This document shows, in pieces, positions 18,881 through 50,178 of a stretch of DNA of 64,000 nucleotides. This DNA is from Clostridia bacterium (GTDB taxonomy: Bacteria; Bacillota; Clostridia; UBA1212; UBA1255): the NCBI GenBank assembly GCA_017620915.1, contig JAFZSK010000011.1, forward strand, positions 4,647 through 68,646, in the 5' to 3' direction. Position numbers and translations under genes: made by a program. Positions within the stretch are counted from its first letter, which is position 1. Each line of letters opens with the position of its first letter. The notes below the pieces were generated by a model. That model made no database searches and had not been told where the DNA came from. It saw nothing but the letters and a program-made list of their open reading frames with translations.

Positions 18881-18888
18881 GATACTGA

Positions 18889-22398: not shown

Positions 22399-23469
22399 TC
22401 AGATCGCCACGCAGTGGTTGAGGCCTCTAGTCAGGTCGGATCGGGCACGCTGCGCGTCGAAACCCACCAGCTTTATGCCTTTGTCCACCGTATTCTGATA
22501 AATGATCTCCATATCGTTAAGGTGAGGTTGAGTCATATTTACCACCGACAGCGATGGCGCCCCGCACAGAGATCTGATATAGTGATCGCCCCTGCCGCAG
22601 AAATGCATGCCTCCGCCGCCGAAGCGGTCCAGCAGCATCCGGTCGTAGGGGACGCAGAATTCGTCGTACAGCTCCGGCGAGAGATTCATTGCGCTGTCAC
22701 AGCGCAGCATGATGCTGCCCTTGTGCCAGACGTTGCCCCAGTGGGGGTTTATGTCCGGCCGCGGCGGGTAAAGTTTCTGCCACTCCTCCATAAAACTGAT
22801 GTAGGACCGGGTCAACAGCCCCAGTACGTCGTGGACAGTTTCCGGTTCGTCTGCGATCTGGTAGAACATTTCTTCGCCGAACAGCAGTTCGCAGTTGTCG
22901 ATCGGCCCCTGTATATCAGGGTGGTAGACCTGCACATATCTGGATATTTTGGGGTAATGCGCGAATATTTCCTTCACAAATTCGCCGAAGCCGAACACCT
23001 TCGCACCCAGCCCCGCGCGGTTGTCCGGAATGCCTCTGTCGAGGAGCTTTTGCATTGCCCCTTCGCCTGTGAGCGCGCGGGTTATGGGCAATGTATTTGT
23101 TTTGTACGGCATGATGTACACTTCGGCGCCGAACAGCGAAGTGCCGATGCAGGAGCCGTAATTGGCCCGGATGGCGAGGCTCATGGATCTTTCACGGTTG
23201 CGGTCGTTGTCGTCAAGGGCGTAGGATACTCCGAGCAGCTGCGAATACAGCATGCTGTCGTAGTCGGCCATGGCGTCGTTGATCATCATGCTTTTCCGCC
23301 CGACTGTCGTCAATGTCAGTTTTTTGCGCTTCGGAGCGAATATGTCTCCTTCGAACCGGTCAAACAGGAAGTCCCACCACTGGTCAACAAAATCTTCTTC
23401 GGTCTCCGGGTCTATCCTCCGCTCTATATCTTCGAGAAGGTCGATCGTTTTTTGTGTCAGCTTCATCAT
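22399..23469 (-). CDS. URO-D/methyltransferase-like TIM-barrel protein
   Basis: DIQGPID, CDSAMNLSPELYDEFCVPYD and MHFCG. Confidence 0.65.
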   Translation of the reverse strand: MMKLTQKTIDLLEDIERRIDPETEEDFVDQWWDFLFDRFEGDIFAPKRKKLTLTTVGRKSMMINDAMADYDSMLYSQLLGVSYALDDNDRNRERSMSLAIRANYGSCIGTSLFGAEVYIMPYKTNTLPITRALTGEGAMQKLLDRGIPDNRAGLGAKVFGFGEFVKEIFAHYPKISRYVQVYHPDIQGPIDNCELLFGEEMFYQIADEPETVHDVLGLLTRSYISFMEEWQKLYPPRPDINPHWGNVWHKGSIMLRCDSAMNLSPELYDEFCVPYDRMLLDRFGGGGMHFCGRGDHYIRSLCGAPSLSVVNMTQPHLNDMEIIYQNTVDKGIKLVGFDAQRARSDLTRGLNHCVAI

Positions 23470-23515
23470 TCACCTTTAACTCTGCCGCAGGGATCCCGCG
23501 AGCACTTGTTTTTTC

Positions 23516-25849
23516 TTATCCGATCTGACTCTGCATCCATGTCAGATGGGCGGCCATCCATGTATTAAAGTCGTTTCGCATCGCGGAGAGCGTCCGGTAT
23601 GATCCTGACTGGTAACGGGTGCTCTCCAGCTGATAGAGTTTGTTGTATGCGGCCTCATTGATCTTATCCAGATCGGCGTTGACGGCAGCGGTCACTTTAT
23701 CATAGGTATTGCGGAACAGTTCGGCGTATGCCTTTGCGAATTCCGGCTTCCGGGAAAGCTGCGGAAAGTAGAAGTGCGAGCCGTCCCTGTGGATATTGGC
23801 AAAAGAATCAATATTCCATTTCCATGAGTCAAAGTCCCAGTTCGGTCCCATGACGAGCTTGCTGTTCTCGGTGGAATCCTTTTTCCACATAAAGAGGTTG
23901 TTACCTCCGGAGTCCAGGAGACACATGTAGTCCGCTACCAGGACCCACGAAACGAAGGAATCCAGATCGATATAGTCAAGGTATGAGCTGTCGTTTCGGG
24001 AGAGAGCTCTCTCCAGTTCGGTCATGTAGTTTTTAATGTATTTGTAGGCGTCGGAATTTGCGTCGATATCATCGGTATCCGGATATTTGAAGGTGTACTT
24101 CATCACGAAGTTCACAGACGATGGAGTTGTGAAGTATAGCGGCTCGTTCCACCAGTAGGCGTCAAATTCGATGACAAATCCGTCATCTTCCACCGGGCAG
24201 CGCCACCTGGCGTCCCCTTTTCCGGTCCCTTGCTTGACGCATTCCGAGAGTATGTAAATTCCCCGGTAATCGCCGTTGACGTATAGAGAAACGTAGGTAT
24301 AATCCGGCGACCAGGGCGTACCGACAACGTCCGCGATCGCGTCACCGGCAACGCGGTAAATATCCGTTCCGTAATTGAGCAGGAGCCATTCTTTGTCGGC
24401 ATAGGACTTTCCGTCCGACGGGCGGTCAATAAACGGTGCCAGAAGATCGCTCTTCTTTTTCAGCTTGATCTTGTAAGGTTTCTTTATGCCGTAGGCGCTG
24501 GTATTGCCGCGGATCTTCATCTTCGCGCCTTGATACTGTTCCTCCTCGGAACAGTTTTGCGAGGAGTCGTAAACAACGTTGTCGGAGGCATCGTAGATCT
24601 TCACGATGCTGTTCTCCCAAGTCGCATTCGTGATGCCGGCGCCAATATTTCCGGGCGGCGGAGTTACATATTCGCAAGTCGGCCAGACATAGTCTTCGGT
24701 CGTGATCTCCACGCGCGGGAAGTCAACGCTTCTCGCATCGGGTACGTAGCAGGCACTGAAACTGACTGAACTCCCGATCTGCTCATAGCCGTAGCATTTC
24801 AGCTTGACCGTGAACACGTCGTTCTTCGTGAGCTTCATTATATCGCATTCGCCAATCTCACCGTCATATGTTTTGGAGATAGTGCCTGCTCCGCCGGTAA
24901 CGGTGACCTCCACGTAACGGAGCGGCTCTTCCTCCGCTTCTGTCCAGGTGACGATCAGCCGGCCGCTGTCCGATATACCGTAACCGTATGACCCCAGGAG
25001 CGTTTTTCCGTTTGACGCGTTCGCCATTGCCCCGGACGATGCCGTTACTTTAATGTTGCTGTTCACTCCCCGGATAATATAAATATCCCGTCCCAGATCC
25101 TCGATTTGCGCGTATGATCCTTCGACGTTCACCGATGAGATCAGATAACCCTTTTTAGGTTTCAGACAAAGCCAAAGATTCCCGTTCTCACGAGTCGGTT
25201 CCCCGCCGGGCGAATCAGATGTATAGAAGATGTCCGACAGACCGTCCGGAAGCTCCTTCCCTTCGGTATAAAGAGACGGGACGATGCGCGAGTCGGTTTT
25301 GACTGTACAAATATAGGCGTTTTTTTCATAATACTCCCGGGTCCCCGGTTCGGGTTCCTTCGTCGGATCCGGAGTAGACGGCACCGCTGTAGGGGTCGGA
25401 GTCTTGGCGGGGACCGGTGTCCCGGTAGGAGACGGTGTCCCGGTAGGGGCCGGGGCTTCGGTGGGAGTCGGGACTTCTGTGGAACGCGGGGTCTCGGTGG
25501 GAGTCGGGACTTCGGTGGGTGTCGGGGTTTCGGCAGGGGTCGGAACTGCGGTGGGAGTCGGGGCTTCGGTGGGAGCCGTGGTTTCGGCGGGAGTCTGGAC
25601 TTCGGCGGGTGCGGAAGGCGCTTCACTGAACGTTGGTTCCTCGCTCGCGGAGAGTTCTTCACCGGCTATGTCAACAATGTCCGAGGGATCGGGGAAAGGA
25701 GATGAAGAAATCCCGTTTTTCGGTCCGCAGGCAACAAGAGTCATAAGGGTCATCCAAATTGCCAACCCCAAGCATAAGCATCTCTTATATTTTGTTCGTA
25801 TTCGAAGGGTTCTCATAGGCAATTTCTCCCGGTAAAGTTGAACTCTCAT
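23516..25849 (-). CDS. CotH-kinase family lipoprotein
   Basis: KIRGNTS, KKPYKIKL, YVNGDYRGIY, MGPNWDFD; lipobox LVAC and a PT linker. The start codon is uncertain. Confidence 0.85.
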   Translation of the reverse strand: MRVQLYREKLPMRTLRIRTKYKRCLCLGLAIWMTLMTLVACGPKNGISSSPFPDPSDIVDIAGEELSASEEPTFSEAPSAPAEVQTPAETTAPTEAPTPTAVPTPAETPTPTEVPTPTETPRSTEVPTPTEAPAPTGTPSPTGTPVPAKTPTPTAVPSTPDPTKEPEPGTREYYEKNAYICTVKTDSRIVPSLYTEGKELPDGLSDIFYTSDSPGGEPTRENGNLWLCLKPKKGYLISSVNVEGSYAQIEDLGRDIYIIRGVNSNIKVTASSGAMANASNGKTLLGSYGYGISDSGRLIVTWTEAEEEPLRYVEVTVTGGAGTISKTYDGEIGECDIMKLTKNDVFTVKLKCYGYEQIGSSVSFSACYVPDARSVDFPRVEITTEDYVWPTCEYVTPPPGNIGAGITNATWENSIVKIYDASDNVVYDSSQNCSEEEQYQGAKMKIRGNTSAYGIKKPYKIKLKKKSDLLAPFIDRPSDGKSYADKEWLLLNYGTDIYRVAGDAIADVVGTPWSPDYTYVSLYVNGDYRGIYILSECVKQGTGKGDARWRCPVEDDGFVIEFDAYWWNEPLYFTTPSSVNFVMKYTFKYPDTDDIDANSDAYKYIKNYMTELERALSRNDSSYLDYIDLDSFVSWVLVADYMCLLDSGGNNLFMWKKDSTENSKLVMGPNWDFDSWKWNIDSFANIHRDGSHFYFPQLSRKPEFAKAYAELFRNTYDKVTAAVNADLDKINEAAYNKLYQLESTRYQSGSYRTLSAMRNDFNTWMAAHLTWMQSQIG
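25385..25620. repeat. 18-nt tandem repeats encoding a (TE/AE)xPTP linker
   Basis: Repeated TCGGTGGGAGTCGGG-like units. Confidence 0.8.
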
Positions 25850-25902
25850 GCATTCATTATATTTGAACAGAAGGGAAAAATCAATTTGTTTAGTAGTTAT
25901 TC

Positions 25903-25923
25903 CGACAAACCGGATTTTTATCG
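25903..25923 (+). repeat. Putative recombination site, orientation A (1-nt longer core)
   Basis: CGACAAA-CCGGATT-TTTATCG; overlaps the stop codon of the adjacent gene. Confidence 0.65.
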
Positions 25924-26625
25924 AGCAAACCCAAAAAAATCAGGAATAATCTCTGCTCCGAATGTCCGTATTCCCATTCTGTACATTGCTTTGGCGTGAA
26001 TTCTGTCATGCCATATGAAACGTCTCAATACTTTTCGCACAGACCATTGCTCGCCGTAGCTGCCCGTTACGGTATCAAGCGACAAATATCCCGCGATGTT
26101 TTCAAGTGTTTCAAATCCCCTTGCTCTACAGGAAAAGATGGTTCCTTCGTTATCCGATTTAACACCGATTTCAGAAAAATAGTATTCGTTGACATTTTTT
26201 GTGTGCTGGTACATTTCTTCCGCGGTGCGAGGAACAGAACCGTAAAATGTCTTGCGCCAAGGAAGCGTGCTCTTGTGTTTATCCGGAAATGAACTGTAAA
26301 GCATATGAAAATCATTTGCAGATTTCAAAGCCAACAATTTAAGATATCGGTATTCTTCAACCGTCAGAGGACTTTCTTCTGTTGTAAACAAAACATCACT
26401 ATCAGCATCTTTGATTTGCAGATCTGATTTCTTCTCCTGAACGATTTCAATTTCGTAATCATCAGGCGGCGTTTCGCCTTTCCAAAGTTGAAATCGCCGT
26501 ATTTCTTCCGGCATTTTTAATAATGCTTCTTCTTTAGATGCGCCTCTTGTAAAAGCACCCGGATAAGTGTTCACGTAAAGAATGGTATCATAACCATTAT
26601 GCTCCCACACGCAGCCAATTCTCAT
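25918..26625 (-). CDS. Hypothetical protein (HicB-like N-terminus, DinB-like C-terminal His motif)
   Basis: GGAGG RBS before ATG 26625; PGAFTRGASKEEAL and RRFIWHDRIHAKAM. Confidence 0.65.
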   Translation of the reverse strand: MRIGCVWEHNGYDTILYVNTYPGAFTRGASKEEALLKMPEEIRRFQLWKGETPPDDYEIEIVQEKKSDLQIKDADSDVLFTTEESPLTVEEYRYLKLLALKSANDFHMLYSSFPDKHKSTLPWRKTFYGSVPRTAEEMYQHTKNVNEYYFSEIGVKSDNEGTIFSCRARGFETLENIAGYLSLDTVTGSYGEQWSVRKVLRRFIWHDRIHAKAMYRMGIRTFGAEIIPDFFGFAR

Positions 26626-26633
26626 TTTTACCT

Positions 26634-26653
26634 CCAAAGATCCCGGTTTATTG
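26634..26653 (-). repeat. Putative recombination site, orientation B
   Basis: CCAAAGA-TCCCGG-TTTATTG, abutting the RBS of the downstream gene. Confidence 0.6.
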
Positions 26654-26656
26654 AGA

Positions 26657-27535
26657 TCAGAGATCCTTTTCGACAATGTAGTAACTGTGCCTTTTAGGCA
26701 GATCGGACAATACGCCGGCAATCTTATAGCCGTTCTTTAAAAAGAAATCGATGTTCCAGTCATATACTTCTTCAGCGATCAATTTGGTCGCTCCGTTTTC
26801 TTTTGCTTTCTTTTCAAAGTGTTTTAAGAGCAAACTTCCCAGGCCTTGATCACGATGATCTTCATTGACCCATATTTTCCAGATCCAGCCGTCGTCAGTT
26901 CCGGATACACCCGCCATTATGGCGGCAACGACGTTGCCGTTTTCATCGATCAGCTTTCGGTTGATCTTAATGTAATCGTGTTTGGGCTTGAGAAAAGGCA
27001 GATTATACTCATCCAGCTTATTGTCGATATACTCGCTGTCTGCTTCGTTTCCGTCCGCTATTTCATAGCCGATCGGTTTGCACGGCCTTTTGGTTTGAGC
27101 ATTGTCAAGCCGTTTAAATAATGAATAATCCTCGAATCCGGCATGATCATGATTGACCGTTCCGAAAACGGTATATCCATGCTTTAGATAAAAAGGCTTG
27201 GCCTGAAAATCTGCGGTATCCAGATAAGAAAGATAGCAGCCCCTGCCTTTTCCCGCTTCTTCCACCGCCTGTAAAAGGTTCGAGCCCAGTTCCCGCAGAC
27301 GGTATTTTTCGTCCACCCACATAACGTCAACGAACAGACAACCCCATTGATAAATGAATGCGATGCAGCCGGCAATTATGTTGCCGTCTTCATCTGTTAT
27401 CTTTTTACAGATCATCTCCTCTTCATCCTTAAAGCCGTCTGCCGCAGGCACAATTTTGAAATAATGCTCATAAACAAGATCAATTATACGCGCAGAATCT
27501 TTACGTGCGCTTCTTCTTAGTTTGAACTTTTCCAT
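26657..27535 (-). CDS. Tandem GNAT acetyltransferase
   Basis: Two GNAT domains (WVDEKYRLRELGS..FYLKHGY; WVNEDHRDQGLGS..FFLKNGY). Confidence 0.88.
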   Translation of the reverse strand: MEKFKLRRSARKDSARIIDLVYEHYFKIVPAADGFKDEEEMICKKITDEDGNIIAGCIAFIYQWGCLFVDVMWVDEKYRLRELGSNLLQAVEEAGKGRGCYLSYLDTADFQAKPFYLKHGYTVFGTVNHDHAGFEDYSLFKRLDNAQTKRPCKPIGYEIADGNEADSEYIDNKLDEYNLPFLKPKHDYIKINRKLIDENGNVVAAIMAGVSGTDDGWIWKIWVNEDHRDQGLGSLLLKHFEKKAKENGATKLIAEEVYDWNIDFFLKNGYKIAGVLSDLPKRHSYYIVEKDL

Positions 27536-27621
27536 ATTGATATTTCCTTTCGAATTTACTTAAGTGACTTTATAAACTGAAATCAGGGCTGAAGCCCCGG
27601 AAACAGTTGGTAATAATCCAG

Positions 27622-27780
27622 TCACTTATGATTCCCGAACAGATCATCCCGGTACGCATCCAGATATTCGATGCAATATTCGTCTATGCCAAGGAGCGCC
27701 TCCGCGGCGTATACTCCGCCCATCATATCGCGGCTTAAAGGATCCAGTATCGCACTGTCCATTTCTTCGTTTTTCCCCAT
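27622..27780 (-). CDS. Small hypothetical protein (52 aa), not in the ORF track
   Basis: GAGGT RBS, then MGKNEEMDSAILDPLSRDMMGGVYAAEALLGIDEYCIEYLDAYRDDLFGNHK*. Confidence 0.5.
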   Translation of the reverse strand: MGKNEEMDSAILDPLSRDMMGGVYAAEALLGIDEYCIEYLDAYRDDLFGNHK

Positions 27781-27791
27781 CCGTTTTACCT

Positions 27792-27811
27792 CACTAAACC
27801 GGAATTTGCCG
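27792..27811 (+). repeat. Putative recombination site, orientation A
   Basis: CACTAAA-CCGGAA-TTTGCCG. Confidence 0.7.
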
Positions 27812-27819
27812 ATGTTTTT

Positions 27820-28689
27820 TCAGAGGGACTTTTCCATGCAGTACATTGTATGCCCTTTCGGATAATCTTCAAGCACGCCCGTTACTCTTTCATAGCCGTT
27901 CTTTTTGAAAAATCCCACATTCCAATCATATGCTTCAATAAACACAACAGCAACACCGTTTTCCTTTAACTCCTGCTCTAACTCGCCAAGAAGCTGAGAG
28001 CCGATCCCTTGATTGCGGTACTTTTCTTCCACCCAAAGGGCATCGATATCTGTGCCGTTCCAACCATCAATACCACCGACAAACCCGGCAATGATACATC
28101 CGTTTTCGTCCACGATTTTTTTTCTCAGCGAGATGTATTCATGCTCATGAGGCGCAACGGTACTGTCATATTCGCGCAATTTGCTGGAAAGGATTTCTGC
28201 ATCCTTTTCGTTACCACGCTTGATTTCGTATTGTTGGCAATCTAACGGCATATATTCCGCGGAAGGTCGGTCAAGCCGTTTTGTGAGCATATAGTGTTCA
28301 TGACCCTTCGGCACATCTGTCATCGTGTCGTTCAGCATATAACCATGTTTGTCGTAAAACGCTTTTGCCTGCCAGTCAAAGGTTCCGACCATTGCGAGAT
28401 AGCAACCTTGTTCCCTTGCTTTACGTTCAGCCTCCCGCATCAGTGCAGAGGCCATACCCTGTCTGCGAAACGCTTCTTCCACCCACAGATCATAGATTGA
28501 TGCAGTCCTCAGAGCGTCTACAGACAAAATGCATCCGCCAAGGAGGTTTCCACTTTCGTCGGTGACTATATAAACAAACTCTTCTTCCTCCGCTTCTTCA
28601 GGTTGTGCAATTGTGTTGAAAGCATTTTCCACTTGTTCTTCAATATACTCCATATCGTCTTCTGAACAAGGTATCATTTCAAATTTCAT
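27820..28689 (-). CDS. Tandem GNAT acetyltransferase (paralogue of 26657-27535)
   Basis: AAGGAG RBS before ATG 28689; two GNAT domains with RRQGMAS and RNQGIGS. Confidence 0.88.
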   Translation of the reverse strand: MKFEMIPCSEDDMEYIEEQVENAFNTIAQPEEAEEEEFVYIVTDESGNLLGGCILSVDALRTASIYDLWVEEAFRRQGMASALMREAERKAREQGCYLAMVGTFDWQAKAFYDKHGYMLNDTMTDVPKGHEHYMLTKRLDRPSAEYMPLDCQQYEIKRGNEKDAEILSSKLREYDSTVAPHEHEYISLRKKIVDENGCIIAGFVGGIDGWNGTDIDALWVEEKYRNQGIGSQLLGELEQELKENGVAVVFIEAYDWNVGFFKKNGYERVTGVLEDYPKGHTMYCMEKSL

Positions 28690-28702
28690 TTCTGTTTCTC
28701 CT

Positions 28703-28722
28703 TCACAAATCCCGATTTGTCG
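28703..28722 (-). repeat. Putative recombination site, orientation B
   Basis: TCACAAA-TCCCGA-TTTGTCG, abutting an RBS. Confidence 0.72.
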
Positions 28723-28759
28723 ATATGATTCTATCACACCGGGCAAAGCTTTTCTACTG

Positions 28760-28815
28760 AAAACGGGGCTGGAATGTTGCTTCCAACCCCGCAGATGGAG
28801 GAGAGGATTGGATTC
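28760..28815 (-). other. tRNA 3'-end-like remnant followed by a terminator-like hairpin
   Basis: GGAGAGGATTGGATTC (28800-28815) matches the tRNA-Ser 3' end (50180-50195) at 15/16 positions. Hairpin CGGGGCTGGAA..TTCCAACCCCG. Confidence 0.5.
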
Positions 28816-28943
28816 CTCGCCTGCGGGTCGGATTTTTGGCGTACAGAATCGCCTGTGTGCCCTTCAAATCGATCGGGAGGCATAGTTGCCTCTCCGAACC
28901 GGAATGGCACGTAAAACGCGTTTTTGAGTGGATTAAAAGACCT

Positions 28944-28963
28944 CGACAAACCGGGATATGTAA
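28944..28963 (+). repeat. Putative recombination site, orientation A
   Basis: CGACAAA-CCGGGA-TATGTAA. Confidence 0.68.
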
Positions 28964-28977
28964 ATCTGTACGGATCT

Positions 28978-29871
28978 TTATTCTTTCTTTTTTACAGGAA
29001 CCCAGACCGCGCTGCGGTAGTCGGGATCGGTCTTTTCTCCGTTTATGCAATCATACCACTCAACATTTGCATTGCCGCAAAGCTCGTACTCCGGGTTTCC
29101 CGGCAGCCATTCCCGGAAGATCTGCGTGTTCACGCTTTGGAGCGCCTCCGGGATCGGACCGATGCAGTTGAACACGGCCCAGTCGCTTCTTGGAAATTCA
29201 TAGACGACCATTCCTTCCGGCACATCTCCGCCCGTGTATTTGCCGGCAACGAGATACCGGAACTTTCCGCCGTCGATATCGTCGATACAGACGCCGTATT
29301 CCCCGATGCAGTTATCTACCAATGCCTGCTCATAGGGATTTGCCGGAGTATTACCGGCATACACGTTGTAAGCATATTTTTCACAGATCTCATCCCAGAA
29401 CTTCGGGATCTCAGCGTAAGCGGTTTCATTGTCAAATACTTTCTGAAAGCCGATGACCTTAAACGGGAATATCGGTGTGATTTTGTAGTCCATCTGATTA
29501 CCTCCATGAACGGACAGTTTGATCGTCAAGGGAAGGAACGTGTTGATCGCCGCACCGCCGCGAACCTGTGACGGCGCCCGGCCGTGGAACCGTGAGAAAG
29601 CCTTTGTAAAACTTTCCGGCGTTTCATATCCGTACCGGAATGCAATGTCGATCACTTTGTCATCCGTCTCCCTCAGATCCACCGCCGCCAGATACAGCCT
29701 TCTGTTTCTGATATACTCTCCGATACCGTATCCGGTCAAGAGAGAAAAGCCCTTCTGAAGAAAGAATGGGGAAAAATACACCTGATCCGCCACGTCCTGC
29801 ACACTGATATCGTCGGTCAGATGTTTTTCAATATAATCGATTGCAGTACGAACACAGGTAAGCCACTCCAT
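28978..29871 (-). CDS. AraC-family regulator with a GyrI-like effector domain
   Basis: YIRNRRL..DIAFRYGYETPESFTKAFSRFHG; C-terminal IFREWLP..VWVPV. Confidence 0.9.
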   Translation of the reverse strand: MEWLTCVRTAIDYIEKHLTDDISVQDVADQVYFSPFFLQKGFSLLTGYGIGEYIRNRRLYLAAVDLRETDDKVIDIAFRYGYETPESFTKAFSRFHGRAPSQVRGGAAINTFLPLTIKLSVHGGNQMDYKITPIFPFKVIGFQKVFDNETAYAEIPKFWDEICEKYAYNVYAGNTPANPYEQALVDNCIGEYGVCIDDIDGGKFRYLVAGKYTGGDVPEGMVVYEFPRSDWAVFNCIGPIPEALQSVNTQIFREWLPGNPEYELCGNANVEWYDCINGEKTDPDYRSAVWVPVKKKE

Positions 29872-29987
29872 CTGTCGATCCTCCTTTTTCTGACAAGATC
29901 ATTATATCACTAAAAGCGATAAATGTCCTGTCATTTACTGCTCAGATCTGTCCCGCGAATACCGGCTTGCCGGAATCATTTTTATTC

Positions 29988-30007
29988 CTACAAACTGGAA
30001 TTTATCT
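29988..30007 (+). repeat. Putative recombination site, orientation A
   Basis: CTACAAA-CTGGAA-TTTATCT. A degenerate B-like site precedes it at 29953-29972. Confidence 0.65.
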
Positions 30008-30038
30008 AACCGCACCAAAAGAGTTGTTAGCATAAGAA

Positions 30039-30551
30039 CTAATTTACTTCATTATCGCATTCCACGAAGTCCGGCGTTCCGGCAAAAATGAACTCACTGC
30101 ATAAATACTCGAAAAGATTGCCGAAATAATTAACTCTACCGCCGTAGTCGGGTAGAATCGCGATCAGACTTCCGTCTGGTTTGATCCAAATAATGTCGTA
30201 GTAATAGTATCCGCCTGTCGCTACAGGAACGGTATCCGGACCAAACTTATCTCTCGTGTCAGGATCGTACCAGTACTGCAAAGCCTCCTCAGACGAATCA
30301 AAACCATCAATCAAGTCGAGCGTACAAACAAACCGGAAATCGATGCGGTTCTTGCTCCGAGTGGAAAAGCGACAATGATCAAGCACACCGTCCCACTCGC
30401 GGCAGAATTTCTCCGCCGCTTCGGTGTAAGGCACGCCTGCATTGCGATAACGCTTCACGAACTTATCGTGATCGTATTCATAAGCCCTGTGCGCTTTAGC
30501 AAATTCCACCATCGCGGCGATTCGTTCTTCTAACGTCCCGGTGAGTTCCAT
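30039..30551 (-). CDS. Hypothetical protein (weak resemblance to SUKH-type immunity proteins)
   Basis: 170-aa ORF. AAEKFCREWDG and VPVATGG..IWIKPDG are suggestive only. Confidence 0.5.
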   Translation of the reverse strand: MELTGTLEERIAAMVEFAKAHRAYEYDHDKFVKRYRNAGVPYTEAAEKFCREWDGVLDHCRFSTRSKNRIDFRFVCTLDLIDGFDSSEEALQYWYDPDTRDKFGPDTVPVATGGYYYYDIIWIKPDGSLIAILPDYGGRVNYFGNLFEYLCSEFIFAGTPDFVECDNEVN

Positions 30552-30557
30552 ATAGTT

Positions 30558-31259
30558 TTACTCCTTCTCCCACACACAAAACGTTTTAGCGCAGTGCTTT
30601 TGAACGCATATCTTTATCAGGTTGAACCAGCAGATACAGTGATCGAGGATGATCGAATCGGTCGTGATCACGTTATTCTTGTCCCACAGCGTCGAATCGA
30701 CGGCTTTCAGTATCTGAATATCGAGATCGAACGGATATTCTTCGCCGATCTCGGCGAGCAGCGTTTTCAGCCTCCCGGAATTCGACACCGGCTCGTCGAG
30801 CAGGACACGCGCGGTTTTGACATTTTGCTCTTTCAGCGTATCGAACAGCGCGTGAACGGCTTTCTCAGTCTCTGGGATAATACGATACGTACCGCGCAGG
30901 GCGGCAAGATCGCGTACCGTACCATCCATACATTCAAACAGGATCGAATCGGAAAACATAACTTCAAGCGTTATCACCGTGTTGAAGCCGTCTATCCAAA
31001 CTTCCGAGCCTTCAAGAGAGGTTTTCTCTTTTGCTTTTCTTGTTTTCAGCTGTTCATTGGAGGCAACGCTACGCGCGATCGCAAGCCTCTGACGCTCGGA
31101 CAATACGAAATGATTGCCGACAAACGTCGACGCCTGCTTCAAGTCGTATCCCTCGTTCAACAGGTAACAGATATGCCGCGATGCGGTTTTCATTGTCTTT
31201 ATTGCCGCCGGAGAAAAGTATCTTTCATCCTCCGGCACATATCCGCGCTTTGCGTTCAT
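30558..31259 (-). CDS. DUF434-domain protein
   Basis: YLLNEGY..FVGNHF..RQR, IDGFN, DGTVRDLA and PVSNSGRL. AAGGAG RBS before ATG 31259. Confidence 0.8.
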   Translation of the reverse strand: MNAKRGYVPEDERYFSPAAIKTMKTASRHICYLLNEGYDLKQASTFVGNHFVLSERQRLAIARSVASNEQLKTRKAKEKTSLEGSEVWIDGFNTVITLEVMFSDSILFECMDGTVRDLAALRGTYRIIPETEKAVHALFDTLKEQNVKTARVLLDEPVSNSGRLKTLLAEIGEEYPFDLDIQILKAVDSTLWDKNNVITTDSIILDHCICWFNLIKICVQKHCAKTFCVWEKE

Positions 31260-31287
31260 TCGCCTTCTCCTTTCCTGCGCTTTATCC

Positions 31288-31307
31288 CGACAAACCGGAA
31301 TTTGTTG
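31288..31307 (+). repeat. Putative recombination site, orientation A
   Basis: CGACAAA-CCGGAA-TTTGTTG. Confidence 0.75.
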
Positions 31308-31320
31308 ATCAGATGCGAAT

Positions 31321-31854
31321 TTATAACGCAGTGCCGTTTTTCGGCACATAGAAACCGCTAATATCAATACTTTCCATTTCCAGAAGTTTCATTTTCTTTT
31401 CTATACCGCCGGCATATCCAGTAAGATTTCCGTTTGCTCCGACAACACGGTGGCATGGGATGATGAGAGATATGGAATTATGCCCGACTGCTCCGCCGAC
31501 CGCCTGAGCTGACATCCGCGTAATACCTGTGTCTTTAGCAAGCTTCTCGGCAATCTCTCCGTAAGTCATAGTATTTCCGTATGGGATATTTAGCATGATT
31601 TTCCAGACCGACTTACGAAATTCTGTCGTTTTCATATTAATCGGTGGTGTGAAACCGGGTTCCTTACCGCTGAAATAGATATCAAGCCACTTATCCGTCT
31701 GTCTGAAAACGAGCAGTTCCTTTTCTTCACAATCGGAGTCCAATGTATCTGCAAAATACTTCTGGCCGTCAAACCAAAGCCCGATCAGATGATCACCGTC
31801 AGAAGCTTCAGTTATCCCGCCGAGCGGTGAATCATAGTGATGCGTATATTCCAT
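31321..31854 (-). CDS. ogt: Methylated-DNA--protein-cysteine methyltransferase
   Basis: IPYG.T.TYG, AVGGAVG.N, active site PCHRV, LTGYAGG. Confidence 0.92.
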   Translation of the reverse strand: MEYTHHYDSPLGGITEASDGDHLIGLWFDGQKYFADTLDSDCEEKELLVFRQTDKWLDIYFSGKEPGFTPPINMKTTEFRKSVWKIMLNIPYGNTMTYGEIAEKLAKDTGITRMSAQAVGGAVGHNSISLIIPCHRVVGANGNLTGYAGGIEKKMKLLEMESIDISGFYVPKNGTAL

Positions 31855-31870
31855 AGTCAGAATTTCTCCT

Positions 31871-31890
31871 CCGCAAATCCCAGTTTGTCG
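31871..31890 (-). repeat. Putative recombination site, orientation B
   Basis: CCGCAAA-TCCCAG-TTTGTCG. 31873-31892 is identical to 50104-50123. Confidence 0.75.
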
Positions 31891-31908
31891 AGCTCTTAGC
31901 CCGATATT

Positions 31909-31936
31909 ATTATACCATTTTTGCCCCATAATTCAA
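31909..31936 (-). promoter_or_regulatory. Sigma-A promoter at the head of the cassette array
   Basis: TTGAAT-16 nt-TATAAT with a TGn extension, reading into the first site and ogt. Confidence 0.6.
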
Positions 31937-32244
31937 TGAACCCTAACACAATTCTGTCACATTAGCGGATATTATATCCGTTACGTTTGAATGACTTTTT
32001 CCATATGTCATTAGAAAAACAGAGTACTTATTGAAGTGCCCAAAAGCATTGTAACATATAGCTTTTGTGACACTTTTTATCCTCCATTTCTTTACATTTG
32101 GAGGTCTCAGAATCCCCTCACTTTTCGGACTAATTCTAATGTGATTCTAATGTCATTTTTGTACGCTCATTAGATATTTGGCTTATTCCGGCAAAACAAG
32201 CATAAGTATATCTCTTTCCAAAGCCCAGATCACGATAAAATCGC

Positions 32245-32272
32245 GAATTCCGTGATTATAATCACGAAATTC
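32245..32272. promoter_or_regulatory. 28-bp near-perfect palindrome (putative operator)
   Basis: GAATTCCGTGATTATAATCACGAAATTC, with a perfect 16-bp core at 32251-32266. Confidence 0.55.
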
Positions 32273-32379
32273 TTAAAAAATCCGTGAAATTGTCTCTGGA
32301 CTTTGTTCTGTTTCTGTTTATATTGTTGTTGCCAACGCAAAACCGCGGCGGCGGCAATACTAAAACAGAGGTGAGTAAT

Positions 32380-32535
32380 ATGAAACCAGTTGACCCGGCC
32401 GAGTACACAAAAATACTAAACGATAGTCCAGTGGCAATGATGGCAAAAGAAGCCGCAGTGATCGGGCGCGAATACAGGATCCCGAAGACGGAGTTGCTCG
32501 CGTTTATCAGCGGAAACTCATCTGCCGAAGAGTGA
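32380..32535 (+). pseudogene. Truncated excisionase-like (MerR/HTH_17) gene
   Basis: GAGGTG RBS. The 51-aa product keeps the wing motif IGREYRIPKTELLAFI but lacks most of the HTH. Confidence 0.55.
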
Positions 32536-32685
32536 GCAAAAAAGGCCCGAAAAAAGAGAATTTGCAGTTCGCTTTCTCGCTATCTTGTGCTAAAATAGGT
32601 AGCGCAAGAGTTCGCTGAAAGCGAAGGTTCGAAATTTGTCGGGCGGGGACAATGCCCGTTCAGCGAGCTTAAGGAGACGTAATAA

Positions 32686-33483
32686 ATGACCGGAATATCG
32701 ATCCCGTTCAATGGAATATATGACGAAGAGGCAATGGAAGAGTTCCTTCCGGCACTGAGGCAAGCGAAAGATCTCGGTGCCGAAAGCATCGAAATACGCA
32801 ACGTCAGACCAGAATACGATCCGAAAGAAGTCGCGAAAGCGGTTGACTATTTCACAGATTTCGGCTTCCAGATCTCGGTGCACGGAGCGATGATGTCGCC
32901 CGAAACCGCGGTCGAAGACGTTTTCGCACCGCTCTCGGAGATTCTTCCCGGGCTGAAACAGAAATCGCTCAACATAACCGTGCACCCGTTCGATGGGGAC
33001 AATACGGCGGCGCTGACGAGGCTTTCCGATCATATAATCAAAAACCGCCTTCCGGTCACGATAGCGCTGGAAAACAATCGCCTTATGCCCGATGGAAGTC
33101 AGGGCGACTGCGCGGAATACATCCTAGACGCCGTGAAAAAGACGGACAGACCGAACGTCGGCATCTGCTTCGATCTCGGACACTATCTTTATTTCGTACT
33201 GAAAAACCATCCCGAAAAACCGGATATGCTGCCATCAAAAGAGTTTTACAGCCGTGTCATCCACACCCATATTCACGCGCTGCGCGGTCACAGCACGCAT
33301 TATCCATTGACTGAAGAGTATTATATGCCACTGGCGGAATACCTCGCCCCGCTCGCGCCATCCTTTTCCGGGATCTTCAATCTGGAACTTAGTTTTAACA
33401 AATTTGCCGACTCCATGTCGCCCGCCGATGCGCTCGCGGTTTCGATGAAATCTCTTCGTGCAGCATTGTCCGCACTCAGCTGA
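32686..33483 (+). CDS. Sugar phosphate isomerase/epimerase (xylose-isomerase-like TIM barrel)
   Basis: TVHP, IALEN, GICFDLGH, HTHIH and NLE. Confidence 0.8.
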   Translation: MTGISIPFNGIYDEEAMEEFLPALRQAKDLGAESIEIRNVRPEYDPKEVAKAVDYFTDFGFQISVHGAMMSPETAVEDVFAPLSEILPGLKQKSLNITVHPFDGDNTAALTRLSDHIIKNRLPVTIALENNRLMPDGSQGDCAEYILDAVKKTDRPNVGICFDLGHYLYFVLKNHPEKPDMLPSKEFYSRVIHTHIHALRGHSTHYPLTEEYYMPLAEYLAPLAPSFSGIFNLELSFNKFADSMSPADALAVSMKSLRAALSALS

Positions 33484-33484: not shown

Positions 33485-35494
33485 TTATGCTTTCTTCTTT
33501 TTCTTCGAAGCAGCAGTCACGGCAGCAACACCTGCTGCCGCAGCCAGCACACCACCGGTGATCGCGGGAATTATCCAGCCGTTTTTCTTCTTGGAAGCGG
33601 CATCATCCGATTCGTGAGATTCTGTTGCCTCCGGTGTTCCCGGCGCCCCGGTGGGTTCCTCAGCCGGTTTCGGCGCCAGTTCCGGCAATTCCTGCGTACA
33701 GATATACATATCGTGGACTGTCACCAGGAAGTACGACGGTTCGTCGCCGTTCACATCGAAACCTACGGCAGTGAAAATCGGGTCGTCGTTGACGAAGATC
33801 GATTTTGACCATTTGCCGTGATCGCAGAAGATCGCCGAAGGCATAAACAGATAGCCGTCAAAACCCTCGGGGATGCCGTAACTGTAGCGGCCGTTATTTT
33901 GTGCAAGTTCCGCAGCGGGTTCGTTGATCACGCTGACCGTACCGTCAGTCCCAACCAGATACAGATCCAGACCCATCTTGCCCATGTAGGCGTGGTCGTG
34001 ACCGGGCGTATCAGGCTGGAAACAGAACCATACGTCACCGTCGCTCTTGTTGGTCAAGGATAGGACAACGTACTTCGCTCCGGTCAGTTTACCCTCCTCC
34101 TTGAGCATCGGTGCTGTTATACCGTAGCGGTCAACGCAGCTCGCGGCATTCTCCTCGCTCAGCACTATATCGCCGTCAATGATCTCGCATTCACCGTATT
34201 CCCACGGATCGACAACAGACTCGTCAAAAGTTTCTACCAGCCTGAGCTGTACCTTTTTGTCTTCATAGTCGATTTCCGTATTTCCGGTCAGAATAACCAC
34301 GTCTTTGACCGACATATCCAGATCGTAATTTCCCGGAAGCTCAATGCCCATGTACATACCGTTTATGTACAGATTCTCCCACTTGGCGTTTTTCATATAG
34401 CCGGCGTTTTTCGCTTCGCTAAGAGCGCGCCGTATGAGCGGCAGAAGTTCCACGTCGATGTCTTTCCATTCGTTGAATATCATCTGACCGGTGCTGTCGT
34501 AGAAATTGTTGTCTTCGCTGTAAAAATTTGAAGAGGCAATATTGAAGATCCACTTTCCGGTAGCAGAATCCTTACTGCCCACATCCGGGAAACTCATTTC
34601 GGAAACGAAGGCCTCGCGGTTGTCGAATACAGGAAGACCGAACCACAACATATCGGTATAGCGCCCGGTCGTCTCGTCGTAATTGGCCACGAAGAGGTAG
34701 AACATGAATATGGCTGAGTGAAGCGCAGGGTCCGCTGTTCCATTCGTATTGTCCGCAAAGGCATTGAGCCGGGCGCTGAGCTTGACCCTGACTGAATCAT
34801 GCTCCGAGATCTTCGTCTCAGGCATCGGAAGATCCATAGTCTGTTCGAGCAGCAGATGCGGCCATTCCTGCCCCTCTTCCCGGTTTGGCTGTGTATAGCA
34901 TTCGGAGCCCTTCAAGGCGAGCCGTATCTCCCCTTCCACAGTATTCACTTCAACTGTTTTGGATTGGTTGTCATACTTGTAAACGCCGTTTCCTTCATCC
35001 GTAAACCGGTAATTGAAGGTCTGCTCGCCGTTTTTGATCTCATAAGTCGTGTTTTCCTTGTCGTGGAACGGATATCGGGAAGCCCACTGGCACAGATTCC
35101 AGGCCGGGGTTTGTCCCTCGCGCCCGTGATCAAATATGACCATCGGATCGTACATATCCATTTCCGGGAAAGATTCGATCGGATCTGAGTAGATCGGTCT
35201 TCCGAGGCCTCTTACTACAAACCCTTGTGCAAAAGTCCGGTCACGCAATATTGAGATCTCATTCCGGTTCATTTTGTTCTCCTCTTTATCCGTTTCGATC
35301 GAAGTCGGCTCAAACGATGCGGGCGTATCTATATCGGGCGCTGCGGTGCTGTCATCGGTGGGCAACGTTGCCAACGGTGCATCTGTTTTATTTTCCGTAA
35401 GGGTCGATCCGGACAGGCAGCCTGCCAGCAGCGAGAAACACAACAGTAACGCAGTAAAAGCAATATTTATTTTTATACTCTTTATACGCTCCAT
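33485..35494 (-). CDS. Lipoprotein with a C-terminal membrane anchor, unknown function
   Basis: Lipobox LAGC; C-terminal TM and KKKK tail. Its C-terminal domain is shared with 44516-46195. Confidence 0.75.
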   Translation of the reverse strand: MERIKSIKINIAFTALLLCFSLLAGCLSGSTLTENKTDAPLATLPTDDSTAAPDIDTPASFEPTSIETDKEENKMNRNEISILRDRTFAQGFVVRGLGRPIYSDPIESFPEMDMYDPMVIFDHGREGQTPAWNLCQWASRYPFHDKENTTYEIKNGEQTFNYRFTDEGNGVYKYDNQSKTVEVNTVEGEIRLALKGSECYTQPNREEGQEWPHLLLEQTMDLPMPETKISEHDSVRVKLSARLNAFADNTNGTADPALHSAIFMFYLFVANYDETTGRYTDMLWFGLPVFDNREAFVSEMSFPDVGSKDSATGKWIFNIASSNFYSEDNNFYDSTGQMIFNEWKDIDVELLPLIRRALSEAKNAGYMKNAKWENLYINGMYMGIELPGNYDLDMSVKDVVILTGNTEIDYEDKKVQLRLVETFDESVVDPWEYGECEIIDGDIVLSEENAASCVDRYGITAPMLKEEGKLTGAKYVVLSLTNKSDGDVWFCFQPDTPGHDHAYMGKMGLDLYLVGTDGTVSVINEPAAELAQNNGRYSYGIPEGFDGYLFMPSAIFCDHGKWSKSIFVNDDPIFTAVGFDVNGDEPSYFLVTVHDMYICTQELPELAPKPAEEPTGAPGTPEATESHESDDAASKKKNGWIIPAITGGVLAAAAGVAAVTAASKKKKKA

Positions 35495-46195: not shown

Positions 46196-46211
46196 AATTA
46201 TCCTCCTTCAT

Positions 46212-46356
46212 AAACATTACAATGTTTCAAAACATTGTAATATTTAATGTTTATTCTATTATATCAAACGGCGAAAGCAATGTCAACAGCTTAAAATCGG
46301 CTTTTTTTACATAAATATGGTTGATTTTGGGCGAAAATATAAACATTGTAATATTA
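46212..46356 (-). promoter_or_regulatory. Consensus promoter with three operator copies
   Basis: TTGACA (46286-46281)-17 nt-TATAAT (46263-46258). Operators AAACATTACAATGTTT (46212), AAACATTGTAATATTT (46230) and AAACATTGTAATATTA (46341). Confidence 0.75.
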
Positions 46357-49527: not shown

Positions 49528-49571
49528 AAATCTACCTCGAAAAAATAGCGGTTACTTCGTAGGTATAAAAA

Positions 49572-50170: not shown

Positions 50171-50178
50171 ATTTTCAG

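Follow-up and report, generated by a model that had tools for sequence, protein, structure and literature searches.

A region of the 64,000-nucleotide stretch of clostridial DNA analysed here (the window) appears to be a mobile gene-cassette array whose genes are exchanged by site-specific recombination through a putative enzyme, a reading to which we assign a probability of about 0.5. The array holds eight short accessory genes, co-oriented as originally predicted and all on the minus strand: ogt, DUF434+DUF5616, AraC+Cass2/GyrI, two double-GNATs and three genes without a Pfam family. All three tests set for the original prediction of cassette capture and shuffling support it: synteny breakpoints coincide with the sites, gene content and order vary among strains, and sites are found at stop codons as well as upstream of genes.

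Site sequence and position

All eight sites of the original prediction were confirmed in position and orientation, by reading the sequence and by oriented alignment. Those in orientation A (plus strand ..CGACAAA-CCGGAA-TTTG..) lie at 25903, 27792, 28944, 29988 and 31288, and those in orientation B at 26634, 28703 and 31871. Two extra sites, at 49628 (A) and 50102 (B), enclose one gene beside a tRNA-Ser gene, giving ten sites in the window, clustered in one region of the 2.57-Mb genome. Scanned with the strict pattern and up to two mismatches, the window gave six matches where 0.36 would be expected, and six or more were found in 0 of 100 shuffles; one of the six, at 19771, lacks the core and is probably due to chance. 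A position weight matrix (PWM) trained on the ten window sites scores them at 27.5–43 bits, and the best other position in the genome reaches 22.3 bits. Because the training sites score high by construction, the informative part is that the scan of all 2.57 Mb found no further comparable site.

The 7-bp inverted arms that had been proposed hold in their inner part. The CAAA/TTTG pairs form regularly (58–70 of 73 distinct sites from many genomes), whereas the outer three pairs form in 28–32 of the 73, and within the window the full arms are perfect at 49628 only. What is conserved is thus an asymmetric ~22-bp sequence, AT(C/T)YCGACAAA-YYGGRA-TTTG, which retains the predicted asymmetric core YYGGRA. 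The site exists in two versions that differ by one base (GGGA versus GGAA), with spacer CYGGGA at the 5' end of units and CCGGAA at the 3' end; site 28944 is in 3' position, yet its spacer is of the GGGA type. Two degenerate copies had also been proposed. The copy at 29953, back to back with 29988, is a weak match of 15 bits, and that at 27570 is not supported, being the tail of a terminator-like hairpin (27584–27599). No description of these sites or cassettes was found in the literature searched. The features of the region are:

22399–23469, minus: 356-aa gene, no Pfam family, probably a further unit at the array's low end (90% nucleotide identity to G031:C18 over 1094 bp, ending at 23488)
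23476–23500, minus: degenerate 5'-site remnant just upstream of the RBS, with breakpoint 23488 (sequence; joints in X2 and X5; end of the G031 homology)
23516–25849, minus: CotH-family gene with its own promoter (25884–25856), absent or replaced in other strains (Pfam CotH, promoter scan, joints)
25903–25922, plus: 3' site (A) overlapping the 235-aa gene at its stop codon (sequence, alignment, PWM; joint 27550->25917 in X2)
25918–26625, minus: 235-aa cassette gene, no Pfam family (85% nucleotide identity over 25919–26655 to G031:C18, from another family; bounded by sites in both genomes)
26634–26653, minus: 5' site (B) lying behind the GNAT stop codon and ahead of the RBS that serves the 235-aa gene (sequence, alignment, PWM)
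26657–27535, minus: double-GNAT acetyltransferase cassette (Pfam)
27622–27780, minus: 52-aa ORF, followed by the terminator-like hairpin 27599–27584
27792–27811, plus: 3' site (A) behind the second GNAT gene (sequence, alignment, PWM)
27820–28689, minus: double-GNAT acetyltransferase cassette (Pfam); its high summed contig depth in four metagenomes shows that many organisms share it
28703–28722, minus: 5' site (B), starting ~5 nt after the extended -10 promoter 28756–28728 (sequence; joint 28720->31281 in X10, loose ends 28706 in X2 and X9)
28723–28943, minus: long 3'/5'-site junction with a tRNA-Ser-like remnant (~28793–28895), terminator hairpin (~28760–28790) and promoter (tRNA-Ser alignment; 86–94% identity to G036)
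28944–28963, plus: 3' site (A, GGGA-type spacer) behind the AraC gene (sequence, alignment, PWM)
28978–29871, minus: AraC HTH + Cass2/GyrI-like regulator cassette with its own promoter 29929–29901 (Pfam, promoter scan)
29953–30007, no strand: back-to-back junction of the degenerate 5' site 29953–29972 and the 3' site 29988–30007 (alignment, PWM)
30039–31259, minus: two-gene unit, DUF434+DUF5616 (30558–31259) and a 170-aa protein (30039–30551) (Pfam; 82–83% nucleotide identity to G001:C16 and G034:C6, ending at 31286/31298)
31288–31307, plus: 3' site (A) behind ogt (sequence; joints ending at 31281 and 31284; loose end 31305)
31321–31854, minus: ogt (O6-methylguanine-DNA methyltransferase) cassette (Pfam; G001, G002 and G005 have homologous cassettes whose ends lie at sites)
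31871–31890, minus: the array's first 5' site (B), downstream of the extended -10 promoter 31936–31909 (sequence, promoter scan)
49628–50121, minus: single cassette beside tRNA-Ser, with 3' site 49628–49647, gene 49671–50072 (133 aa, signal-peptide-like start) and 5' site 50102–50121
50178–50262, minus: tRNA-Ser (tga), anchor of the cassette locus (ARAGORN)

Unit architecture and a possible role in expression

Read on the gene strand, a unit runs from a 5' site through one or two genes to a 3' site, an anatomy repeated in 20 loci from relatives. The 5' site consists of a flank followed by CGACAAA, CYGGGA and TTTG, and leads straight into the RBS; the 3' site is the inverted motif, directly behind the stop codon. 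Among 77 sites in 28 sequences, an ORF starts within 60 nt downstream of 22 of the 30 sites with a GGGA spacer, and 34 of the 47 other sites abut a stop codon. The latter count excludes the reading of the site as an operator found solely upstream of genes. Arrays are co-oriented. The predicted extended -10 promoter was found just outside the first site of the window's array (TTGAAT-16-TATAAT with TG), and the head promoter puts the start of the first 5' site at about +1, a position at which 5' sites often begin. In many cases a tRNA gene with its terminator immediately precedes this promoter.

An alternative that we consider unlikely, while taking it seriously, holds that the sites are gene-boundary expression elements and that genes are swapped by homologous or short-homology recombination with no dedicated recombinase. 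The 5' copy would form the first 20 nt of the mRNA, running into the RBS, and the 3' copy would lie in the 3' UTR before the terminator; binding of a host protein, or pairing of the transcript ends, would control stability, processing or transcription. Many unrelated genes would then carry the same 20–30 bp at both ends and so could be swapped through them. Several observations agree with this: five 5' sites begin 5–6 nt behind an extended -10 box, i.e., at about +1, the distance from site to RBS has a median of ~11 nt, and low-GC Clostridia have lone 3' sites between stop codon and terminator hairpin. A gene's 5' site shows complementarity to its 3' site over ~17–20 nt, the sites on viral contig L231 flank three to four tail genes and not accessory cargo, and the site is conserved across a class without a co-occurring recombinase. 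However, a single site folds weakly (-3 to -5.7 kcal/mol) and, given the scarcity of outer arm pairs, is not a conserved hairpin, so that it could be read solely by a sequence-specific protein or through long-range pairing. The sites match no Rfam family, and this explanation offers no evident purpose for the single base that consistently distinguishes 5' from 3' spacers. Positions at transcript ends (+1; 3' UTR before terminators) and around phage tail genes could point to a role in expression.

Breakpoints and strain variation

Homology between genomes breaks at the sites. Seven blocks with 88% identity or more are shared by different genomes, and five of them have ends that lie, in both genomes, no farther than 17 nt from a site centre. 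In one ~515-bp cassette, 99% identical, divergence sets in within the 5'-site spacer. Other genomes also contain the ogt and 235-aa cassettes, with homology that stops at sites. At the tRNA-Ser locus, the window, G003 and G005 are alike on the tRNA side up to the 5' site. Beyond it the window and G005 have different genes with the same kinds of site, and in G003 homology to the window stops inside the 5' site, the sequence after it being diverged until the contig ends.

In metagenome contigs of other strains, from four runs of four studies, genes are deleted or replaced and in one case re-ordered, and these changes end at sites or directly beside them. Long joints connect 28720->31281 (X10), 23488->31284 (X5), 23488->26666 (X2) and 27550->25917 (X2), of which the last goes back and represents another gene order; loose contig ends lie at 28706, 28693, 31305 and 31260. 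Likeness was set to 92% and two of the four long joints have anchors shorter than 30 nt, so that related organisms may be the source of these joints. In 34 of 121 cases an exact site is no more than 200 bp away from a contig end, a pattern that branching of assembly graphs at the sites would produce. The metagenome contigs, which are assemblies and not reads, showed no circle, inversion or excision product. One case runs against cassette exchange, in that an unusual outer arm, CAATAAA, travels with its cassette. The breakpoints resolve to the shared AAAYYGGGATTTG, which is compatible with both site-specific and short-homology recombination. Recombination at 13–20 bp of homology is rare, and the inter-genome blocks ending at sites, together with the sites at contig ends, argue against the expression-element explanation.

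Junctions as palindromes

Where units abut, their 3' and 5' sites stand back to back, 12–16 bp apart, and form an imperfect palindrome of 52–56 bp; longer junctions of ~220–240 bp also occur. Sites had been described as unlike attC hairpins, which is true of single sites and does not extend to the combined 3'/5' junctions, as these are imperfect palindromes with attC architecture, although they lack the attC boxes.

It is improbable, in our judgement, that this intergenic palindrome is itself the mobile unit, a MITE- or REPIN-like element with the two sites as its TIRs and a transposase acting in trans. Such elements, with outer ends CAAAT...ATTTG and lengths from 52 bp to ~240 bp or more, would insert between a stop codon and the next RBS, and genes would appear as cassettes merely because elements accumulate around them. 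Eight back-to-back junctions in relatives, with cores 12–16 bp apart, would suit such an element, as would four outward-facing pairs 213–227 bp apart in other genomes, one of which folds as one hairpin of 240 nt (-73 kcal/mol, z -10), closed at its base by pairing of the two sites. The window's long junction recurs in L193, and a RAYT-like Y1 gene is present in all five site-carrying genomes of the window's genus. However, this gene is found in none of the eight genomes of genus g13, seven of which have sites. No target-site duplication was seen by eye at two isolated units (window 49628–50121 and G005), and no transposase was found between outward-facing pairs of 3.1–5.7 kb or among the listed cargo families. 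The copy number and placement, ten in the genome and all in one region, do not resemble those of REP or MITE families, the break in homology between genomes falls within the site and not at its outer end, and junctions with one site only are common (in the window 26634, 27792 and 31288).

Recombinases and tRNA genes

The suggestion that the recombinase is encoded elsewhere fits the genome: the window encodes none, and a single tyrosine recombinase, Xer-like, lies on another contig. No recombinase, of the tyrosine type or any other, co-occurs with the sites consistently. IntI was found neither in the genome nor in 45 genomes of the order; a small serine recombinase is present in 8 of the 45 and missing from most site carriers. 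The recombinases near sites are diverse, while the site is conserved across a class, and a conserved host factor fits this better than many different integrases. No Bacillus-type dif was found in the genome at up to seven mismatches, and the host's dif may differ from that type.

An AP2-arm integrase adjoins sites in G005, G036 and G002. G005 and G036 share the order tRNA-Ser, terminator, promoter, 5' site, gene(s), 3' site and convergent integrase, and L174 has a looser version at tRNA-Pro, its integrase-side 3' site being a weak 13-bit match. Tyrosine recombinase genes occur around sites in 8 of the 80 loci listed; L104, which speaks for the cassette reading as well, is a 6.2-kb element with two such genes flanked by direct site copies, and in the window the full tRNA-Ser at 50178 and the tRNA-Ser-like remnant are in direct orientation. 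That the sites are core att sites of small tRNA-adjacent integrative elements, and the array an integrase-less tandem pile (accretion, CIME-like), is nevertheless very improbable: no site lies near the close integrase homologues in G001:C7, G016 and G019, and those in G001:C7, G019 and G021 adjoin a tRNA-Ser gene, so that the tRNA gene is the likely target and explains the adjacency of integrase and site, a unit's two sites are inverted and not direct like attL/attR, and whole-element integration explains single-gene units neither in arrays nor in prophage tail modules.

Distribution and cargo

The site pattern occurs in 14 of 40 relatives (two genomes for a reversed control), and in 16 of 45 genomes of the order. 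Across the class, 76 of 401 genomes have it, compared with 8 for the control, the class figure being inflated by hsdS coding matches; among 20 class-level loci sampled, three were hsdS coding sequence and two lay inside other genes. Species genomes have at least 120 loci with exact matches; 80 of these were listed, almost all from Clostridia. Around exact-match loci (792 kb) the PWM found 151 sites versus 0 with a backwards PWM, and 17 inward-facing neighbouring pairs span 214–1654 bp. Other genes bounded by such sites are found in relatives, many Clostridia MAGs and prophage contigs. Cargo is of the integron type, with GNAT in 5 of 48 ORFs and CAT, hexapeptide transferase, Cass2, ogt, Fic and aldo-keto reductase besides; the 25 listed families of 55 found include no transposase or recombinase.

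Comparison with known systems

The clostridial arrays resemble integrons in that single-gene units, all facing one way and mostly without promoters of their own, are read from a promoter at the array head, with intergenic imperfect palindromes (52–56 bp up to ~240 bp) conserved at their ends as two inverted 'simple sites'. They share cargo (GNAT, CAT, Cass2, small proteins of no assigned family) and, as in CALINs, can lack an adjoining integrase. The boxes of attC are RYYYAAC and GTTRRRY, which the clostridial site does not fit, and the outer boxes are the conserved ones in attC, whereas here the inner arms are. The clostridial site is also conserved in sequence across a class and not in structure alone, many junctions hold only one half, and IntI is missing from the genomes searched. 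Cury et al. (2016, PMC4889954) did not find complete integrons in Firmicutes genomes.

In the pdif modules of Acinetobacter (XerC/XerD), as here, inversely oriented sites of arm, 6-bp spacer and arm bracket genes, one arm is better conserved, site orientation alternates along the array, modules are shuffled between replicons, and no dedicated recombinase adjoins, so that a housekeeping enzyme is presumed. The clostridial system differs in being chromosomal and prophage-borne, in sites unlike the Bacillus-type dif (a consensus that may not be the host's), and in a 5' site fused to the RBS and often to the promoter, which is not known as a feature of pdif. In the literature searched, dif modules appear in Acinetobacter only.

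MITEs, REPINs, BIMEs and MICs share the short terminal inverted repeats, intergenic placement and, for some junctions, the potential for long hairpins; MICs also carry passenger genes between inverted repeats, as the clostridial units do. Unlike these elements, the clostridial sites come without target duplications seen or a cognate transposase found, in few, clustered copies per genome, and with breakpoints inside the repeats. Accretion of ICEs, IMEs and CIMEs at tRNA genes resembles the anchoring of the array downstream of tRNA-Ser, the tRNA-like remnant inside it and the integrase-bearing elements adjoining arrays in relatives. It differs in that each clostridial unit is one gene between inverted boundary sites that bear no relation to the tRNA sequence, and the integrases nearby appear to target the tRNA gene and not the sites.

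Proposed mechanism

Under cassette exchange by site-specific recombination, cassettes would be gained, lost, exchanged and re-ordered by crossover inside the sites, probably at a point flanked by the strongly conserved outer arm and the weak arm nearest the gene. Sites would recombine with their own kind, 5' with 5' and 3' with 3'. The GGGA versus GGAA spacers may bar a unit's two inverted sites from recombining together, and we propose that the outcome is for this reason cassette exchange and not inversion. Catalysis would fall to a site-specific recombinase that acts in trans and is most likely of the tyrosine type, with the conserved host Xer-like enzyme and a mobile-element-borne one as candidates. 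Strains related to this gut bacterium would thus gain, lose and reorder small accessory genes at these sites in an integron-like manner, with sites unlike those of integrons and without the integron enzyme.

Gene-bounding sites in the window

A conserved, asymmetric site of about 22 bp, present in two versions, bounds genes in the window and is widespread in other genomes; the units that it delimits vary by strain and by genome, and the breaks fall inside the sites. The original prediction had listed eight 20-bp sites in an array at 25903-31936, and a reading of 25700-32300 together with a pattern search recovered all of them with the positions and orientations assigned, although a supposed degenerate copy at 27570 proved to be the tail of a terminator. 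With up to two mismatches allowed, the window contains six matches to the strict palindrome where 0.36 would be expected, a count reached by 0 of 100 shuffles. Two of these matches, at 49628 and 50102, lie beyond the eight predicted and flank a 133-aa gene adjoining tRNA-Ser.

Sites, promoters and junctions (window coordinates; array genes on the minus strand)
25884-25856, promoter of an individual unit
25903, A (3') site
26634, B (5') site, single-site junction
27792, A site, single-site junction
28703, B site
28723-28943, long junction holding a tRNA-Ser-like remnant, a terminator hairpin and a promoter
28756-28728, extended -10 promoter directly before the 5' site at 28703
28944, A site
29929-29901, promoter of an individual unit
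29953/29988, back-to-back junction, the second an A site
31288, A site, single-site junction
31871, B site
31936-31909, extended -10 promoter directly before the 5' site at 31871
49628, site, perfect palindrome
50102, site
50178-50262, tRNA-Ser

Once ten sites are oriented by their cores, the motif is seen to be asymmetric, with one side longer: an AT(C/T)Y flank, CGACAAA, a YYGGRA spacer, TTTG and a variable remainder. The proposed genome scan, run with a PWM of these ten, found nothing comparable when extended to the remaining 120 contigs (genome size 2.57 Mb); the ten score 27.5-43 bits, the best score elsewhere is 22.3 bits, and all 10 copies are confined to one region. Pairing within the site is consistent for CAAA/TTTG only. 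An alternative hairpin between flank and spacer was set aside, as the covariation (42/73 Watson-Crick) is a partial association that descent explains as easily. Single sites and short junctions fold weakly (short junctions as single strands, z -1.4 to -3.5). Rfam gave no match at E <= 1 in 23000-33000 and none at sites in six further loci, which leaves the site without a known RNA family. The outer arm resembles what we take to be an inverted 0A box (Spo0A); because the spacer is equally conserved and sites also stand in 3' positions, the sequences argue for coincidence.

A different, 28-bp near-perfect palindrome of 11-6-11 form, TTGAACACGGG-TCTGTC-CCCGTGTTCAA, occurs with its variants in at least six copies on five contigs of the source genome (C67:10941, C117:36141, C96:8850, C7:534, C55:13150 and C55:15413) and could represent either a family of repeats or an operator. 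Other features of the window are as follows.

25405-25638, about 11-13 tandem 18-bp units (11 overlapping 54-nt copies listed), encoding, close to the N-terminus of a CotH-family protein, a Pro/Thr-rich repeat
33485-35494 (669 aa) and 44516-46195 (559 aa), paralogous large genes with 76-82% nucleotide identity over ~750 bp, 11.1 kb apart, with glycoside-hydrolase and sugar-kinase genes between them
~46000-50500, switch of gene strand and GC skew (left, minus strand and negative; right, plus strand and positive) with the cumulative skew minimum, an origin-like pattern, yet no replication genes were seen there in the window
50440-50486, repeat of the tRNA-Ser 5' half (50217-50263) 223 bp upstream, 98% identity over 47 nt, possibly the scar of an integration event; ARAGORN calls one tRNA

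Anatomy and cargo of the units

All eight genes in the predicted span lie on the minus strand, co-oriented as originally read, and comprise ogt, DUF434+DUF5616, a 170-aa protein, AraC+Cass2/GyrI, two double-GNATs, a 52-aa ORF and a 235-aa protein. G+C content is 43-48% in the array against 56.6% in the genome. On the gene strand, B sites (spacer CYGGGA) stand immediately 5' of a ribosome binding site (RBS) and A sites (TTCCGG) immediately 3' of stop codons. Among 77 sites tallied in 28 sequences from the source and other genomes, 30 have the GGGA-type spacer, with an ORF start at most 60 nt downstream in 22 (median ~11 nt); the remaining 47 have other spacers, mostly CCGGAA, and 34 abut a stop codon. 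A unit therefore consists of a 5' site, an RBS, one or more genes and an inverted 3' site. The same 34 of 47 rule out a transcription-factor operator confined to positions upstream of genes, an outcome that the original prediction had named as counting against it.

The extended -10 promoter predicted outside the first site is present, a second precedes the 5' site at 28703, and some units possess their own promoter. Eight back-to-back junctions in relatives have 20-bp cores 12-16 bp apart and form an imperfect palindrome of 52-56 bp. The long junction of the window recurs in another genome (locus L193), and a different junction of ~240 nt (locus L100) folds into a single hairpin (-73 kcal/mol, z -10) with its two sites paired at the base. 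The tRNA-Ser-like sequence within the array (28793-28895) is degenerate, with acceptor and T-arm ends kept and the middle rearranged; the terminator and promoter after it are those that follow real tRNA-Ser genes in two other genomes, G036 and G005.

The 48 site-adjacent ORFs examined matched 55 Pfam families, GNAT first with five ORFs, the rest including chromate transporter, CAT, hexapeptide transferase, aldo-keto reductase, ogt, Fic, Cass2, methyltransferase and DUFs; the 25 families listed of these 55 include no transposase or recombinase. Site-bounded units in two sister species hold, by our own reading, a chloramphenicol-acetyltransferase-family gene (L038:464-1114, G001:C14) and a gene taken as a hexapeptide acetyltransferase (L053:10141-10707, G005:C49).

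Homology ends and strain differences

Homology between genomes stops at the sites, and gene order and content vary among strains, the two behaviours by which the original prediction proposed to judge the array. The ogt unit is shared with G001, G002 and G005 at 77-79% identity in alignments ending at 31290-31297 and 31870-31890, and the 235-aa unit has an 85% identical counterpart in G031, a genome of another family, where it is likewise bounded by sites. Of the seven blocks shared between different genomes at >=88% identity over >=150 bp, five have an end that lies, in each of the two genomes, no more than 17 nt from the centre of a site. G034 and G036 show this most clearly, being 99% identical over ~515 bp and diverging within the spacer of the 5' site; the gene is thus accompanied by its weak arm and RBS, and the outer arm stays with the context. 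At the tRNA-Ser locus, the tRNA side is common to the window and G003 as far as the 5' site, beyond which the window and G005 hold different genes; G003 departs after the site and its contig ends shortly beyond.

Parts of the array occur in public ruminant and other gut metagenomes (20 runs, 10 studies). Strains were compared on contigs from four runs of four studies at 92% likeness, and no evidence was drawn from gaps in coverage, from depth or from the word shares of the other runs. The contigs join 28720 to 31281 (with 18 other letters in between), 23488 to 31284, 23488 to 26666 and, going back, 27550 to 25917, which places the 235-aa gene and a GNAT gene in reverse order; two of these four joints have anchors of just 23 and 26 nt, and related organisms can give rise to joints of this kind. 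Loose contig ends fall at 28706 (two runs), 28693, 31305 and 31260. Position 23488 is a joint, the end of 90% homology to G031 and part of a degenerate 5'-site remnant, which makes it probable that the array extends as far as 22399. A contig end lies at most 200 bp from 34 of 121 exact sites, as expected from branching of the assembly graph at variable junctions.

Distribution in other genomes and phages

An 18-mer pattern with one mismatch was found in 14 of 40 relatives, mostly in several copies (reversed control, two genomes), in 16 of 45 genomes of the order, and in 76 of 401 genomes of a class sample against eight for the control. The class figure is an overestimate, because three of 20 loci inspected from it are hsdS coding sequence and two lie in other genes. 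The remainder are four site-bounded units and 11 lone 3'-type sites, which follow a stop codon and mostly precede a terminator. In hsdS loci of other Clostridia (L082, L044, L097, L054 and L084) the pattern matches the sequence encoding the HsdS central conserved region, LIKxRFVEM, as an 11-6-11 near-palindrome; we treated these matches as false positives, and a link to hsdS-shuffling recombinases is conceivable.

A scan for exact sites, with one genome per species, returned at least 120 loci; the 80 matches listed are nearly all Clostridia gut MAGs, with a few cultured strains, among them Oribacterium sinus DSM 17245 and Eubacterium xylanophilum ATCC 35991 (names as in the records). Over the listed loci (792 kb) the PWM found 151 sites, against 0 when read backwards, and neighbouring sites most commonly face inward (17 pairs, 214-1654 bp). 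The motif also occurs in 14 viral contigs, two of which (L219 and L220) carry a small unit inserted between two tail genes. Sites range over many Clostridia families, ruminant and other gut metagenomes, and prophage contigs; a plasmid collection queried with a junction gave no match. One 4.9-kb viral contig (L231) has six sites around three to four phage tail-module genes, each flanked, which we read as a Gp15-like protein, a tape-measure-like protein and two tail proteins, odd contents for accessory cassettes.

Search for the recombinase

No recombinase gene is encoded in the window. The source genome has one Xer-like tyrosine recombinase (contig C24), two serine recombinase genes and one RAYT-like Y1 gene. 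Its best match to the IntI model TIGR02249 scored 54.7 bits against a cut-off of 265, and none of 45 genomes of the order had a match at E <= 1e-30 or above the cut-off in a search run without a positive control. No non-housekeeping candidate gene tracks the sites across the order. The small serine recombinase on contig C12 occurs in 8 of 45 genomes with no link to sites; its gene (18618-19061) is interrupted by a TAG, in frame, ahead of the point where a DNA-binding domain would be expected. The RAYT-like Y1 protein occurs in 12 of 45 genomes, but in none of the eight of genus g13, seven of which carry sites.

A tyrosine integrase with an AP2 arm lies ~200 bp past a 3' site in G005 and G036, with a remnant in G002. 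It was rejected as the cassette enzyme, as the loci examined around its close homologues in G001:C7, G016 and G019 contain no site. Since these lack a nearby site and the homologues in G001:C7, G019 and G021 adjoin a tRNA-Ser gene, the tRNA gene or remnant lying after the array best accounts for the adjacency; no empty site was found in the G001:C7 interval. Tyrosine recombinase genes lie near sites in 8 of the 80 listed loci, all generic family members, and locus L104 has two of them in a 6.2-kb segment between direct copies of the site. That element also contains a match to the Gut-1 RNA family (4345-4417; 40.2 bits, below the gathering score of 50). Conservation of the site throughout the class would agree best with a conserved enzyme of the host.

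Comparison with known systems and possible mechanism

In its workings the system comes closest to an integron array or to the Acinetobacter dif modules. As in integrons, imperfect palindromes of two inverted simple sites separate cassettes (the back-to-back junctions and the 240-nt hairpin), and a promoter heads a co-oriented array in which some units have their own. The attC R''/R' boxes have the consensus RYYYAAC ... GTTRRRY, whereas the outer boxes here, compared by eye with that consensus, are YRRCAAA ... TTTGYRR with no GTT/AAC pair. With no IntI found and no such boxes, the array does not fit the definition of an integron. As in dif modules, inversely oriented sites of arm-6 bp-arm form bound the modules in the inward-facing pairs; no Bacillus-type dif was found in the genome at up to seven mismatches, a consensus that may not be the host's. 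The portions of the literature available to us describe no such sites in Clostridia or Firmicutes.

We consider it roughly an even chance (about 0.5) that cassettes are exchanged by site-specific recombination at the sites. Crossover would take place in or beside the spacer through a site-specific recombinase, probably of the tyrosine type, with like pairing with like (5' with 5', 3' with 3'). A one-base spacer difference would block inversion, and cassettes would therefore be exchanged. The sites could instead be expression-boundary elements whose genes are shuffled through homology. The positions next to RBSs and the lone 3'-type sites before terminators speak for this reading and the homology blocks that end at sites against it; we hold it to be rather unlikely. 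Intergenic elements of the MITE/REPIN kind, to which the palindromic form might point, are improbable: two of two units judged by eye (window 49628-50121 and G005) show no target-site duplication, no transposase lies between outward-facing pairs (3.1-5.7 kb) or among the listed cargo families, and the ten copies are clustered rather than many and dispersed, with no consistent RAYT co-occurrence. Attachment sites of tRNA-linked integrative elements, with accretion, are a still fainter prospect; the tRNA-Ser neighbours speak for them, the integrase homologues with no site nearby against them.

Cassette exchange may, more tentatively, amount to a system that Clostridia and their prophages have for themselves, apart from integrons and Acinetobacter dif modules, as a natural form of recombinase-mediated cassette exchange. 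Each cassette would carry two heterospecific, inverted recombination sites, so that double exchange would proceed without inversion; the 5' site would also serve as mRNA start and RBS adaptor, and tRNA-linked promoters would provide the expression platform. The swaps would be made by a conserved tyrosine recombinase, possibly the single housekeeping Xer-like enzyme.

One survey found complete integrons in no Firmicutes genome (PMC4889954), and the trade of single accessory genes among these dominant gut bacteria is therefore poorly understood. A system of site-bounded cassettes would account for a class of assembly breaks, and the 22-bp site is a simple handle with which to mine metagenomes for cassettes. 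The enzyme, if found, might become a cassette-exchange tool for anaerobes that are hard to engineer. If the proposed exchange is true, it would be a new route of gene flow, one that includes resistance-type genes such as the CAT and hexapeptide acetyltransferase genes in units of relatives.
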